A stretch of 64,000 nucleotides of DNA, from the NCBI GenBank assembly GCA_045612865.1, contig JAZKZW010000082.1:5135-69134 (forward strand). Reading direction: 5' to 3'. The first letter of the stretch is position 1. Every line of letters begins with the position of its first letter. The notes under the pieces were generated by a model. It did not search any database. It had not been told where the DNA came from and worked only from the letters and a program-made list of their open reading frames with translations. This document shows, piece by piece, positions 33,310-39,057 of the stretch. The position numbers and the translations under genes were made by a program. This DNA comes from Eubacteriales bacterium (GTDB lineage Bacteria > Bacillota > Clostridia > Oscillospirales > CAG-272).

Positions 33310-33549
33310 TTAAAATGTTTTAATTGTCTTCTTTTTTAAAACTATCGCGCCTCCATAATTACATAGCTGATTCATGAGAGTTATTACTTGAAAAAATTTC
33401 TCTTCATCAGATATTTCAATCCAGAAAGAGGTCCAATTATTCCAAGAATAACTGCTTCTAATCTTAAAAGGAATAATATGAAATTGATTAAGAACTTGCA
33501 TTGCTTCTTGTTCTTCTACATACTTAATTCTAATTTTAGCCTTAATCAT
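33310..33549 (-). CDS. hypothetical protein
   Basis: 79 aa ORF. Confidence 0.3.
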   Translation of the reverse strand: MIKAKIRIKYVEEQEAMQVLNQFHIIPFKIRSSYSWNNWTSFWIEISDEEKFFQVITLMNQLCNYGGAIVLKKKTIKTF

Positions 33550-34085
33550 TCGTTGATTACCTCAATATTACAAGATTTCATTACTTCAAGCGCTGCGCGA
33601 TGCTTTTCTGGAGTGAGACCTGCGCAACAAGACGAGTCAACGCGGATTTGAGTCATGGGGTACATGCTGCGCAAAATAAGCGCGTTAGAAATGACACAAA
33701 TATCTGTGCATACTCCACAGAGCTCAATCTCACTCACTTCAAGATCGTCCCATACATCCTGCATATAATCCCAGAAAAAACTACCGTAGGTAGACTTCGC
33801 AATTACATTTGGATATGTGGTTGTAGCCATAAGTTCAAGTAGTTCAGGAATAATCTCCGAACCTTCGGAGTATTCTCTACAATGAGGGGGAACACATTTT
33901 CCTTCAATGGTTTCGTTATAATCTTCACAGTGAATATCTTTGGTGAAATATACCAGGTCTCCATTCCTCTGCGCTTCAAGCACTTTATTGCGCACATTAT
34001 CGACAATATCGCGCGCCTCAGGGGTGCCAAGCGCGCCATAGATAAAATCATTCTGCATATCAACAACAATCAATACTTTATTCAT
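33546..34085 (-). CDS. pncA: nicotinamidase / isochorismatase-family hydrolase
   Basis: VDMQNDF motif, catalytic Cys region CGVCTDICV. Confidence 0.65.
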   Translation of the reverse strand: MNKVLIVVDMQNDFIYGALGTPEARDIVDNVRNKVLEAQRNGDLVYFTKDIHCEDYNETIEGKCVPPHCREYSEGSEIIPELLELMATTTYPNVIAKSTYGSFFWDYMQDVWDDLEVSEIELCGVCTDICVISNALILRSMYPMTQIRVDSSCCAGLTPEKHRAALEVMKSCNIEVINE

Positions 34086-34332
34086 ATTTTGTCACCTCGT
34101 CCCATTTAATAATAATATATTTCGATCTATCGTTACAAATATATCCTAATTTTTCAAGATAATTTTTAACAGCTTCTCCTTCAGAGGGTCCATCTATGTC
34201 TATATAAGTCTGAAAATATCCTTCTGTTGCAGCTGCCCAAATTTTTTTCATAAGACTTTTTTTATATTTCTTACCTAAAGTCATAGGTTTTTTAGTAAAA
34301 AGATTTGCCTGTTTAGCAGTAATATCTTTCAT
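34078..34332 (-). CDS. hypothetical protein
   Basis: 84 aa ORF. Confidence 0.3.
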   Translation of the reverse strand: MKDITAKQANLFTKKPMTLGKKYKKSLMKKIWAAATEGYFQTYIDIDGPSEGEAVKNYLEKLGYICNDRSKYIIIKWDEVTKYE

Positions 34333-34658
34333 TAGTTCATTCCCTCCATATATTCTTTATATTCTTCTTCGGAAATTTCTTCTGCGCCATAAGAAATAGT
34401 ATTTTCAATCTCTTCACAATAGCGCACATTAATTTCCTCTAAGATCTCTTTATCCACCTCAGGGTCTCCCAAATCAATACCAAATTCTTCATCGGCAATA
34501 TCTGCCTCAGAAAGAACTCCGTGATATCCAGCATAAGACTCATAGTTTTCTACTGCGAGATTATAAGCAGTTTCATATGCTTCATCAAAGTCTTTTGCTT
34601 CAATATATTCTTCATTCTCGCCGCATCCACATCCATAGATAATTCTAAAATATGCCAT
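34332..34658 (-). CDS. acidic hypothetical protein
   Basis: 108 aa ORF. Confidence 0.3.
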   Translation of the reverse strand: MAYFRIIYGCGCGENEEYIEAKDFDEAYETAYNLAVENYESYAGYHGVLSEADIADEEFGIDLGDPEVDKEILEEINVRYCEEIENTISYGAEEISEEEYKEYMEGMN

Positions 34659-34659
34659 A

Positions 34660-34974
34660 TTATTTTACCTCCCTTCCAACAGTACAAATAAATTTTATAA
34701 ATGTACAAAACCAATATAATAAAGTAAAAAGAGGACAGCATAAACTAGCAAATAAAACTATTAATCCACATCCAAAATAATTTACTTTAAATTCTTTATA
34801 AACATCACAAGGATTTAGCAATAAGCAATTATCCAAACGTCTTGATGACGTATAAACCATAGCTAAAATACCAAATCCGAATATATGCCATAGAATCAAA
34901 GGGCCTAACAAAATATCCATTATCTTATCTCCTTCCAACGGTACAAAGTTTATAAATCCAATAAAACACTGCAC
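34660..34974 (-). CDS. small membrane protein (paralog of next gene)
   Basis: 104 aa, hydrophobic. Confidence 0.3.
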   Translation of the reverse strand: MQCFIGFINFVPLEGDKIMDILLGPLILWHIFGFGILAMVYTSSRRLDNCLLLNPCDVYKEFKVNYFGCGLIVLFASLCCPLFTLLYWFCTFIKFICTVGREVK

Positions 34975-35194
34975 ATGGTGTAAAAATTAAATTAAACAAG
35001 ATACCTAAAAAATATGCTCCAAACCAATTTACCTTACCAGTTTTATAAAGAACATTAGGATTTAAAAAAGATAATCCACAATCTTCCTGCAAATTAAAAC
35101 CAACCATAATAACTGCCATAAGAACACCAGCCACAAGCGAGTATGAAATTATAAGAAAATATATAGTAACTCCCATTATTTTATCTCCTTCCAA
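34925..35194 (-). CDS. small membrane protein
   Basis: 89 aa, hydrophobic. Confidence 0.3.
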   Translation of the reverse strand: MEGDKIMGVTIYFLIISYSLVAGVLMAVIMVGFNLQEDCGLSFLNPNVLYKTGKVNWFGAYFLGILFNLIFTPCAVFYWIYKLCTVGRR

Positions 35195-36766: not shown

Positions 36767-36885
36767 AATTAATCCCTTCCTGTTTGTTTAATGAAAACTG
36801 GAATAAAGCCAAATAAAAACCATCCTCTCCAGTATTTACGCCAAGGCCACCGTCCAGTGGTAAAATCACGTCGAATAATCATTTT

Positions 36886-37161
36886 TTACTCCTCCTCAAT
36901 TAATTCAATCTCTTCAACATAAAAGCACCCATCCCAATCAAGAGTAGGCATCATTGCCCATTCAACTAAGTTTTCATTAGTTTTTTCCCACTCGTTGTCA
37001 TCAAAGATCTTACGAATAGGAACCCATTGATCAAACAGGTAATAGTCGGTTTCAAAGTGCAGCCAATTCTTTTTAACAAGATATTGAAAAGCGGCGCGTC
37101 TTGATGTCGCAACTCTAATAGTACCATGATTTTCTTCTATGATTAAAAAAACTTTTTTCAT
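36886..37161 (-). CDS. hypothetical protein
   Basis: 91 aa ORF. Confidence 0.3.
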   Translation of the reverse strand: MKKVFLIIEENHGTIRVATSRRAAFQYLVKKNWLHFETDYYLFDQWVPIRKIFDDNEWEKTNENLVEWAMMPTLDWDGCFYVEEIELIEEE

Positions 37162-37263
37162 TTTTTCTTTTCCTCTCTTTCATTTCTTTTATAATTTATT
37201 ATAACATATTTTTTATAAAAAATAAAGGCAGAATTAATATTCTACCTTTATTTTTCTTTTATT

Positions 37264-37839
37264 TTAATTCAATTCAATAGGTTTCAAATCACCATAGATA
37301 TTAGGTACAAAAATACCTATCCAGAAATTCTTCTCATAGTATTGGTTACTTGCTAAATTAGAATTCCATTCACGGACTTGATTATACAATTCCTTTTTGC
37401 CTACTACATCATCTCCGCCATCTTGATAAATATTATTTTCAACTTCCCAAGAAAGAACGTCATATTCTGCTTCAAGTCCTACTCGCTCACCGCCAGATCC
37501 AGCATAAATACCTATGAGAACAAAGCTCATAATGACTAGAACAATTGCACAGCCGACAGCAATTACTTTACATACTGCATTAACAGTTTCTTTTCTTTGC
37601 AGTCGTTCATATTGTTTTGATTGCTTAAAATCTTCAAGTTCTTTTCTTGCTTTGTCGCGCGCCTCTATAATATTTATATATTCCTGCTTGCTATAAACAG
37701 AAGGCGAAGCATCGAACCAAATTTGATATGTTGAATCTGCTGCGCGTTGTAGCGTACGCAGTTTTACTTGACCAGAGATAGGAATAATTAACCCAATGAG
37801 CGCGATTGCGCCAATAATAACAAAAATCCAAAATAACAT
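37264..37839 (-). CDS. membrane-anchored hypothetical protein
   Basis: 191 aa, N-terminal and central TM helices. Confidence 0.35.
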   Translation of the reverse strand: MLFWIFVIIGAIALIGLIIPISGQVKLRTLQRAADSTYQIWFDASPSVYSKQEYINIIEARDKARKELEDFKQSKQYERLQRKETVNAVCKVIAVGCAIVLVIMSFVLIGIYAGSGGERVGLEAEYDVLSWEVENNIYQDGGDDVVGKKELYNQVREWNSNLASNQYYEKNFWIGIFVPNIYGDLKPIELN

Positions 37840-37845
37840 TTTTCT

Positions 37846-39057
37846 TTACACTCCTTCGTTTAATCTATAATTTACTGCACTCTTGAGATATTCAAGATAT
37901 TTTTCGTTTTGGCACATTGCCTTGCCAGGATTATCACTGATTTTAGCCACAGGGTGTCCGTTAACATACTGGAGCTTAATTACAATATTCAAAGGCTGCT
38001 CATTAGTATCATTCGACAGGTATGTGCCGATACCAAAGCTTACCTTAACGCGCCCTTCAAAGTGATCATGAATAGCCTGAGCCTTATCAAAATCAAGGCT
38101 GTCGCTAAACAGAAGAGTTTTAGTCTTGGGATCAATGCCAAGCTCATAATAGTGCTTAATCATTTTCTCGCCCCATTCAAAAGGATCTCCGCTATCATGG
38201 CGCACTCCGGTATAGCAGTTAGCTTGGAGCTTATTAAAGTCCATAAGGAACAGATCTGTACCAAGAGTATCGGTAAGCGCGGTTCCATTATCACCTTGAT
38301 ATTCCTCAAACCATTCGTCCATCGCCATTTTATTGGTGTAGGCGAGAGTGACGCCAGGGATACCCTGATACATCTGGACATATTCATGCGCATATGTGCC
38401 AATAGGCGTGCAACTATATTTCATTGCAAGGTAGACATTCGAAGTACCTACGCATTGCTTGGTTTTGAGAAGTTCGTCTACTACATATTCTTGCCATTCG
38501 CGCGAAAGGCGTCTACGCGCGCCGAATTCTGCGAACTTAAAGTTATAATAACCCGACTTGATTAGGTTGATTTTATGCTGAAGCTTTTCGCGCGCCGAGG
38601 TAATAAGATCGAGGTAATCATATTTCATACGAAAATATACTTCATTGACGATTTCAAGCAGATAGATTTCAAACTGCATCACAGAGAAGAGCGGTCCATT
38701 TACCTCAATACAAAGTTGAGTTCCGTCAACCCAACAAGCAACATATCTGCGAAGAGGGCGCCAGAGACGAAGAAACTCGATATAATCCTTTTTGATGAAG
38801 CGAAGCGAGCCAAGATAGCTCAATTCTTCGTCAGTAAAAGTAAGTGTGCAAAGATGGTCGATTTGCGCGTTAATCTCTTCGCACATTTCTTCGGTAAATT
38901 CTACATCCTTATTACGACACTTAAAGATATAGATTCCGTTAAGGTTGGTGTGCTTATGAAACATGACTTGATTCATATTAAACTTATAAAGATCAGTATC
39001 AAGCAGGCTAATTACAATAGGACTAAGTTTCATCATTTTTATTCTCCTCCATACCAA
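37846..39057 (-). CDS. pncB: nicotinate phosphoribosyltransferase
   Basis: LLDTDLYKFNM N-terminal signature; ~400 aa. Confidence 0.7.
   Translation of the reverse strand: MVWRRIKMMKLSPIVISLLDTDLYKFNMNQVMFHKHTNLNGIYIFKCRNKDVEFTEEMCEEINAQIDHLCTLTFTDEELSYLGSLRFIKKDYIEFLRLWRPLRRYVACWVDGTQLCIEVNGPLFSVMQFEIYLLEIVNEVYFRMKYDYLDLITSAREKLQHKINLIKSGYYNFKFAEFGARRRLSREWQEYVVDELLKTKQCVGTSNVYLAMKYSCTPIGTYAHEYVQMYQGIPGVTLAYTNKMAMDEWFEEYQGDNGTALTDTLGTDLFLMDFNKLQANCYTGVRHDSGDPFEWGEKMIKHYYELGIDPKTKTLLFSDSLDFDKAQAIHDHFEGRVKVSFGIGTYLSNDTNEQPLNIVIKLQYVNGHPVAKISDNPGKAMCQNEKYLEYLKSAVNYRLNEGV

Follow-up and report, generated by a model that had tools for sequence, protein, structure and literature searches.

A putative host-type PncA-PncB module for NAD+ salvage in a large rumen-type phage

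We analyzed a 64-kb stretch of DNA, referred to here as the window, from a contig of 105,973 bp (JAZKZW010000082.1), and found that two of its minus-strand genes, encoding PncA (33546..34085) and PncB (37846..39036), are likely to be intact, host-type auxiliary metabolic genes for the first two steps of deamidating (Preiss-Handler) salvage of nicotinamide adenine dinucleotide (NAD+), a reading in which we have good confidence. From their sequences, the predicted nicotinamidase and nicotinate phosphoribosyltransferase appear to be intact copies of the first two enzymes of nicotinamide recycling. The absence of NadD, NMNAT and NadE reported below holds for the window only. Salvage by PncA and PncB is already known as a helper function of gut jumbo phages, and the current picture is unchanged by our finding; the additions are modest, namely that the core best conserved in the gene cluster is PncA-PncB, that the module is of host type, that it exists in a form with PncA and PncB only, and that the open reading frames (ORFs) between the two genes are unrelated to it.

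The 179-residue PncA, which is predicted to convert nicotinamide to nicotinate and NH3, matched the Pfam family Isochorismatase (PF00857) over residues 4-177 (E 2.4e-25; 90 bits against a cut-off of 27), and its top matches in the PDB were nicotinamidases, the best being the pyrazinamidase/nicotinamidase of Pyrococcus horikoshii (1ilw, E 1.3e-16). Two residues of the catalytic triad, D9 and C130, mapped onto D10 and C133 of the P. horikoshii enzyme; the ligands of the metal, D50, H52 and H68, lay opposite D52, H54 and H71 of 1ilw, forming the Asp-x-His...His metal site that sets nicotinamidases apart from other isochorismatase-like hydrolases. In the HMMER alignment to 1ilw it was Y91, not K97, that stood opposite K94; we assigned K97 as the putative catalytic lysine by motif reading, as it aligns with the lysine of EKTRYSAF in 6a8l/5zn8. 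All six residues of the triad and the metal site were invariant in 19 distinct phage PncAs, homologs which were 31-63% identical to the PncA of the window.

PncB is predicted to be an ATP-coupled nicotinate phosphoribosyltransferase of the type with about 400 residues, which makes nicotinic acid mononucleotide (NaMN) from nicotinate and phosphoribosyl pyrophosphate (PRPP). It matched the Pfam families NAPRTase_N (PF17767, E 2.2e-29) and NAPRTase (PF04095, E 8.5e-69), scored above the NCBIfam equivalog cut-offs of NF003704 (500.7 bits against 379) and TIGR01514 (431 against 269.55), and aligned end to end with PncB structures (PDB 1yir, E 2e-91), its PIGTYAHEY standing opposite PLGTMAHEW of 1yir. 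PHROG 448, labeled 'nicotinamide phosphoribosyl transferase', matched it weakly (E 1e-20). Among 19 phage homologs 129 positions were invariant, including H217, the histidine of the GTxAHE motif, which in enterobacterial PncB is the site of ATP-dependent autophosphorylation. The first-pass annotation of this DNA had named both enzymes by the motifs VDMQNDF (PncA) and LLDTDLYKF (PncB), both of which we found in the translations, and its two identifications were confirmed by Pfam, by the PDB relatives and by the conserved residues, with NCBIfam agreeing for PncB. It had placed PncB at 37846..39057, and here the identity stood and the start did not, since the ATG at 39036 is preceded by GGAGG 9 nt upstream and gives a 396-residue product, as in the gene recorded for the source contig. 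Starting at the TTG at 39057 most likely makes the gene seven codons (21 nt) too long.

The window is DNA of a large rumen-type phage. Nearly all of its genes are carried on the minus strand, its closest relatives are viral contigs in IMG/VR with sizes up to 299-333 kb, and a gene of the phage tail-tube family YomU_Tube is present in two syntenic relatives, labeled here L192 and L196; no virion genes were recognized within the 64 kb. A megablast search of positions 33000..40000 against 50,697 phage records gave no match, and the phage has no close cultured or deposited relative. That NAD salvage is here encoded by a phage, as had been proposed, is backed by the conserved linkage in related phages described below and by a described class of phages (PMC11662467).

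When IMG/VR was scanned with PncB, 28 viral loci were retrieved, their contigs reaching 333 kb and their PncB proteins sharing 50-82% identity with that of the window. In 27 of them PncA was encoded on the strand of PncB, no more than about 4 kb away, often directly adjacent and on either side. Genes for the last two steps stand beside PncB in relatives as well: NadE (NAD synthase, PF02540) was found in 19 of the 28 loci and a CTP_transf_like adenylyltransferase, either NadD-type or an archaeal-type NMNAT, in about 17. The relatives' NadE proteins scored above the NCBIfam cut-off of TIGR00552, with a glutamine-dependent NadE reaching 787 bits against 473 for NF002730, and a NadD-NadE fusion reached 148 bits against 112 for TIGR00482, while archaeal or NadM-type NMNATs stayed below the NCBIfam cut-off. 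With a NadE profile, more than 521 matches were obtained across IMG/VR, of which 80 loci were covered. By these family assignments, many relatives encode the whole Preiss-Handler route as one cluster. Within the window, no NadD, NMNAT, NadE, NAMPT, PnuC, Nudix, sirtuin or PRPS-like protein was found by Pfam among ORFs of at least 120 residues, and a tblastn search with the relatives' enzymes, which tolerates in-frame stops, found no NadD, NMNAT or NadE. A form with only PncA and PncB within 10 kb on either side was also seen in loci L002-4, L008, L009, L017, L018 and L025, the last being the closest and syntenic relative, with a PncB 82% identical to ours.

A second scan, restricted to one genome per species, retrieved 80 loci, all from assemblies labeled as rumen or gut bacteria and nearly all of them Clostridia, with PncB 67-79% identical to the window protein and with chromosomal scaffolds of four Ruminococcus flavefaciens isolates among them. 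The pncA gene lay upstream of pncB in 57 of the 80, directly adjacent in the R. flavefaciens isolates, and nadE stood between the two in 28, sometimes together with an NMNAT gene. Copies from R. flavefaciens and rumen Clostridia were about 70% (PncB) and about 45% (PncA) identical to those of the window. Because the same pncA-pncB operon, with the same two enzymes in the same linkage, occurs in these bacteria, the phage module is a captured host-type operon serving as an auxiliary metabolic module, and the nearest bacterial homologs, which are found in rumen Clostridia, point to these bacteria, and to Ruminococcus, as the probable host. The arrangement differs, however, as the bacterial genes are directly adjacent with pncA first, whereas in the window PncB comes first and is separated from PncA by 3.8 kb comprising phage accessory genes and a homing endonuclease, and the phage copies form a clade of their own. 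In an approximate neighbor-joining tree with midpoint rooting, the window PncB grouped with the IMG/VR copies and a few contigs of metagenome-assembled genomes (MAGs), apart from a large bacterial clade; one such MAG contig (L029) holds many phage gene clusters in common with the IMG/VR loci. This separate PncB clade of phages and mobile elements would argue for long retention in phages. A Clostridia MAG contig (JAFUOO010000011.1; L033:1-21194) is bacterial; its pncB, which belongs to the phage clade and shares 77-78% identity with the window copy, stands alone, with no pncA adjacent. This gene sits inside a defense or mobile island, between a type I restriction-modification system (HsdR/S/M) and an SMC-like ATPase, a DpnII restriction-modification system with two methylases, and a Mu-type transposase.

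In the route that we propose, PncA would convert nicotinamide to nicotinate, PncB would convert nicotinate and PRPP to NaMN in an ATP-coupled reaction, and NaMN would be carried to nicotinic acid adenine dinucleotide (NaAD) by NadD and on to NAD+ by NadE, either by host enzymes or by phage copies located outside the window. NadD and NadE are essential in bacteria. Where NAD+ is cleaved not by LigA but by NADases, sirtuins or ADP-ribosyltransferases, the common product is nicotinamide, and in the infected cell it would be recycled faster into NAD+, which would sustain LigA and other NAD+-dependent functions; a depletion of NAD+ would be blunted. We infer the activity of the enzymes, their dependence on host NadD and NadE, and the benefit to the phage. 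LigA is the only NAD+ consumer recognized in the window, and its earlier assignment as an NAD-dependent DNA ligase at 12863..14887 (minus strand) was borne out: the protein is full length, has the Pfam domains DNA_ligase_aden, OB and BRCT, and aligned over residues 42-673 with Escherichia coli LigA (2owo, E 1.8e-64), covering the KLDG motif and part of domain Ia.

The nearest described counterpart is the set of 174 'NAD-jumbo phages' from animal guts reported by Li et al. (Microbiome 2024; PMC11662467), which have complete salvage or Preiss-Handler pathways, pncB-nadD-nadE clusters, a full replication set and, in more than half, an NAD-dependent ligase, and which were proposed to feed the phage's NAD+ needs and to counter NAD+ depletion. 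Many of the IMG/VR relatives (L001, L005-7, L010-16, L019-24 and L026) fit this description exactly. The window differs in having PncA and PncB only, so that the complete pathway which defines those phages is lacking from its 64 kb, and the most conserved feature among its relatives is the linkage of PncA to PncB, whereas pncA appears only in the discussion of that paper. The NAD-jumbo phages are moreover defined by a genome larger than 200 kb; the source contig here is 105,973 bp long, and the related IMG/VR contigs reach 299-333 kb.

Several points weigh against reading the pair as a salvage module. The activity of both enzymes is a prediction. PncA scored below the only NCBIfam nicotinamidase equivalog (NF008623/PRK11609; 33.7 bits against a cut-off of 174), and its assignment therefore rests on the residues, the PDB relatives and the linkage; this model was built on the 213-residue enterobacterial type, and the miss reflects divergence from that subgroup, not from the family. 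The gap of 3.8 kb separates PncA from PncB, and co-regulation is not evident. It is possible that phage NadD and NadE genes lie in the remaining third (42 kb) of the 106-kb source contig, and many relatives encode NadD and NadE themselves, suggesting that the amounts supplied by the host can be limiting, which would weaken the case for a two-gene module.

As a refinement of the salvage reading, the pair may have been selected as a counter-defense, that is, for a NARP2-like but deamidating reconstitution of NAD+ in which nicotinamide released by Sir2, TIR, SEFIR or NIR effectors would be returned to NAD+; we regard both this selection and this source of nicotinamide as possible, and put them forward tentatively. 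NAD+ is a central battleground of bacteria and phages, on which three phage reconstitution pathways have been shown experimentally: NARP1 (Adps and Namat), NARP2 (NAMPT and NMNAT) and NARP3 (PnuC and a NadR-like protein). These are proven phage counter-defenses, and the same idea is favored by PncA, which ties the pathway to nicotinamide, the NADase product, in 27 of the 28 phage loci, and by the phage-clade PncB that stands alone in the bacterial defense island of L033. The island also holds a cREC protein of the NAD/ADPr network. On the other side, the pncA-pncB linkage is inherited from host operons and hence is not a phage-specific adaptation, the window encodes only two of the four steps that the route requires, L196 (a relative sharing the backbone) lacks PncA and PncB in the 20 kb of contig read, and we found no paper showing PncA or PncB acting against a defense system.

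NARP2, which runs from nicotinamide through nicotinamide mononucleotide to NAD+ (Osterman et al. 2024 preprint, 10.1101/2024.02.11.579819), resembles the pair in its nicotinamide start and in its type II phosphoribosyltransferase of the NAPRTase/NAMPT superfamily. It differs from the window route, which is deamidating and takes four steps (nicotinamide to nicotinate to NaMN to NaAD to NAD+) instead of two, whose transferase is PncB by NCBIfam equivalog and not NAMPT, and which has no adenylyltransferase in the window; in addition, anti-defense activity has been demonstrated for NARP2, whereas the window pair is known from its genes alone. NARP1 and NARP3 are likewise phage-encoded ways of rebuilding NAD+, but the window ORFs scanned include neither a PRPS-like Adps nor PnuC or a NadR-like protein, and the transferase is a standard PncB beside PncA, not Namat. 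The preprint on NARP1 and NARP2 makes no mention of PncA or PncB (10.1101/2024.02.11.579819), our literature search found no paper testing them in phage counter-defense, and the deamidating PncA/PncB route in phages is known from metagenomic annotation only; to this the window adds a well-supported example. Bearing on the choice between metabolic support and escape from NADase immunity are the operon that the host lineage already has, the lack of the genes in the 20 kb of L196, and the NadD and NadE that many relatives add; a counter-defense role is plausible.

A bolder extension, which we consider rather unlikely, is that the two-gene module without phage NadD and NadE constitutes a minimal, host-dependent, fourth NARP-like route against NADase immunity, with the DUF5662 protein as a new accessory enzyme. 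The pair stands without phage NadD or NadE within at least 10 kb in L025, L002-4 and L017, and within 64 kb here, and its two genes make a simple construct for asking whether nicotinamide recycling alone blunts NADase immunity. The DUF5662 protein (23095..23649, minus strand), probably a divergent HD-type phosphohydrolase, lies 14 kb from PncB in the window and is a frequent, phage-specific neighbor of PncB in relatives: it stands beside PncB in many phage loci, between PncA/NadE and PncB, and among the 80 loci from bacterial assemblies it occurred only in the phage-like L029.

Nicotinamide inhibits sirtuins and ADP-ribosyltransferases through product inhibition and base exchange, as with yeast Pnc1 and Sir2, and it could be argued from this general biochemistry, and from the presence of RNA-repair and cREC genes in the window and among its relatives, that PncA chiefly clears nicotinamide and so spares NAD+-consuming phage enzymes from inhibition, with resynthesis of NAD+ being secondary. 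We think this improbable, as no sirtuin, ADP-ribosyltransferase or Tpt1/KptA was recognized in the window, and PncA is nearly always paired with PncB, in relatives also with NadD and NadE, which indicates a flux towards NAD+. Little speaks for the view that the isochorismatase-family protein is some other cysteine hydrolase, or that both genes are inactive remnants, so that there would be no NAD salvage. Isochorismatase-like hydrolases do act on many substrates, and PncA lies far under the PRK11609 cut-off, but D50, H52, H68 and the assigned D/K/C triad have stayed invariant across phage homologs that are 31-63% identical, nicotinamidases are the top PDB matches, the linkage to PncB is near-universal in phages and bacteria, and PncB keeps 129 invariant positions including the GTxAHE histidine; we therefore judge this view very unlikely. 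That the window is bacterial chromosome and its genes ordinary host pncA and pncB, as the origin of the sequence in an NCBI contig of 106 kb, the want of a recognized virion gene in the window and the similar operons of bacterial genomes might suggest, is scarcely credible given the IMG/VR viral contigs of up to 333 kb as nearest relatives, the YomU_Tube gene in the syntenic L192 and L196, the array of 24 tRNAs and suppressor tRNA, the many homing endonucleases with in-frame TAG codons, the placement of nearly all genes on one strand and the position of PncB among phage copies in the tree.

The first-pass annotation had also described PncA and PncB as bracketing a run of small genes, and we indeed found ten minus-strand ORFs in the 3.8 kb between them; its further suggestion that these, for example 35995..36306 and 34332..34658, supply the missing steps from NaMN to NAD was not upheld. 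Only their position between PncB and PncA speaks for non-canonical enzymes of this kind, three of them (91, 92 and 108 residues) being likewise placed in L025. NadD has about 170 residues or more and a Rossmann-like HIGH fold, and NadE about 250 or more and a PP-loop, but only the homing endonuclease and the ORFan at 37264..37839 exceed 170 residues in the interval, the other ORFs having 65-108, and in Pfam, NCBIfam and PHROG searches none of the interval ORFs matched the CTP_transf_like or NAD_synthase families. Furthermore, 35995..36306 encodes a cREC domain protein, the small alpha/beta fold of 34332..34658 matched nothing significantly, canonical NadD/NMNAT and NadE serve in the relatives, and L196 keeps the 91-residue protein and the cREC gene without PncA or PncB. 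None of the ten can be either enzyme, and the idea is close to refuted.

These ORFs are better described as unrelated cargo. L025 has three small ORFs only (91, 92 and 108 residues) between PncB and PncA, and L196, a 130-kb relative from ENA, has the backbone order flotillin-like, 91-residue protein, cREC, MVP-like, sigma factor and RNA ligase, and thus keeps the island while PncA and PncB are missing from the 20 kb of contig read. What lies between the flotillin-like and MVP-like genes is therefore an accessory island of variable content, where salvage genes and small ORFs are gained and lost independently of each other. The GC content was 0.41-0.42 for PncA and PncB and 0.28-0.36 for the island ORFs, except for those encoding the 92-residue protein (0.39) and the cREC protein (0.41).

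All of the following island genes are on the minus strand. Next to PncB lies an ORFan of 191 residues (37264..37839) with no significant family match, a singleton cluster that is absent from all 28 related loci, in which two hydrophobic stretches seen by eye suggest transmembrane segments. The 91-residue protein (36886..37161) has a 95% identical copy in L025 and is also present in L196, which lacks PncA and PncB, and it belongs to a very narrow family, with only 5 homolog clusters among 5.8 billion proteins. An acidic protein of 92 residues (36488..36766) has no family match and a 58% identical homolog in L025 between PncB and PncA; the adjoining 65-residue ORF (36303..36500) has no significant match and no homolog in the related loci. 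The cyclic-phosphate-processing receiver-like (cREC) domain protein (35995..36306) has 103 residues and matched PF20274 (E 2.8e-19; 70 bits against 27) and PHROG 1479; it opens with MKLWIDDV and holds SIDHDAGD, the match of its Asp residues to the acidic receiver-type pocket being judged by eye. Its family is predicted, not shown, to process RNA ends and ADP-ribose cyclic phosphate (ADPr>P) by opening the cyclic phosphate (PMC9503650).

The homing endonuclease gene of the island (35176..35934) consists of a standard ORF at 35176..35799 with an N-terminal extension through one in-frame TAG. It matched PHROG 559, 9084 and 7140 with E values down to 1.7e-33, has zinc-finger repeats and a C-terminal domain weakly like the DUF559/DUF5889-type endonuclease-like domains of Pfam, and has paralogs at 24949..25761 and 59671..60600. 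Two small proteins encoded in tandem (34925..35194 and 34660..34974) are paralogs of each other (BLASTP, 32% identity, E 4e-7) with no family matches, and their hydrophobicity, judged by eye, suggests membrane proteins. The highly acidic 108-residue protein (34332..34658) has an alpha/beta fold with only weak, generic fold matches, none significant, and showed no detectable paralogy to the acidic 92-residue protein. The last ORF, of 84 residues (34078..34332), overlaps the start of PncA by 8 nt, had no matches and is absent from the relatives.

The island is flanked by a flotillin/SPFH gene (39756..41288, 510 residues) and an MVP-like gene (30767..33235, 822 residues; MVP_shoulder E 1e-25, PDB major vault protein E 1.6e-12), both on the minus strand and both kept in L025 and L196. 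Viral MVPs have been reported from gut phages (2023 preprint, 10.1101/2023.11.10.566534), and eukaryotic vaults carry the NAD+-consuming TEP1 and PARP4 (10.64898/2026.09.04.749371); the position of the MVP-like gene beside NAD salvage genes is a curiosity only. After the flotillin-like gene lies a terminator-like hairpin (39716..39741, minus strand; an 11-bp stem followed by a T-run), a consensus match only, which is possibly the upstream boundary of the transcription unit that holds PncB. Promoter and terminator scans of the window were at or near chance (32 promoters found against 30 expected; 9 terminators against 5), and no operon structure can be claimed from them.

There are signs that TAG is recoded to glutamine in this phage. 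Only 1 of 56 window ORFs ends in TAG, and a tRNA with anticodon CTA (22444..22519, minus strand), 80% identical to the tRNA-Gln(TTG) of the window, looks like a Gln-like suppressor. Seven homing-endonuclease genes, of the zinc-finger, GIY-YIG and LAGLIDADG types, are full length only with TAG read as sense: 11070..12227, 18491..19423, 24949..25761, 35176..35934, 54449..55258 and 57764..58594 on the minus strand and 59671..60600 on the plus strand. Those of these genes that were checked stop by stop had TAG as their sole internal stop, with up to nine in one gene. It fell where paralogs or consensus motifs have glutamine, as in 'C*CDCG' against 'CQCDCG' and, for GIY-YIG, 'YIG*S' against the consensus YIGQS. 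TAG is avoided in the other window genes examined, and the in-frame TAGs are concentrated in the selfish endonuclease genes. A tblastn match to 'NadE' at 59.9-60.6 kb was rejected as an artifact of single-linkage clustering, the query being itself a homing endonuclease.

Elsewhere on the minus strand, an RNA-repair set at 25820..28106 comprises a calcineurin-like phosphoesterase (25820..26353), an AAA_33 P-loop kinase (26341..26823) and an RNA ligase (26919..28106) that carries a PHA02142 OB domain. A 12-kb array of 24 tRNA genes occupies 42300..54500 (minus strand), one of them (52677..52751) having an anticodon loop of 8 nt, and the downstream edge of the array is marked by a ROOL RNA (42702..43321, minus strand; RF03087, 161.6 bits where the gathering score is 99.1). 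The RNA-repair set, the cREC gene and the tRNA array together suggest repair of cleaved tRNAs. Near PncB, relatives carry a Thg1-like gene and one for a DUF2828/DUF7788 protein. The window also encodes a sigma-70 family factor (28216..29127), a Pyr_excise protein like T4 endonuclease V (29735..30127), RecJ, DnaB and RNase H, as well as gyrase B (19917..21818) and gyrase A (16118..18235) on the minus strand, with the LAGLIDADG homing endonuclease at 18491..19423, which has one TAG, lying between them.

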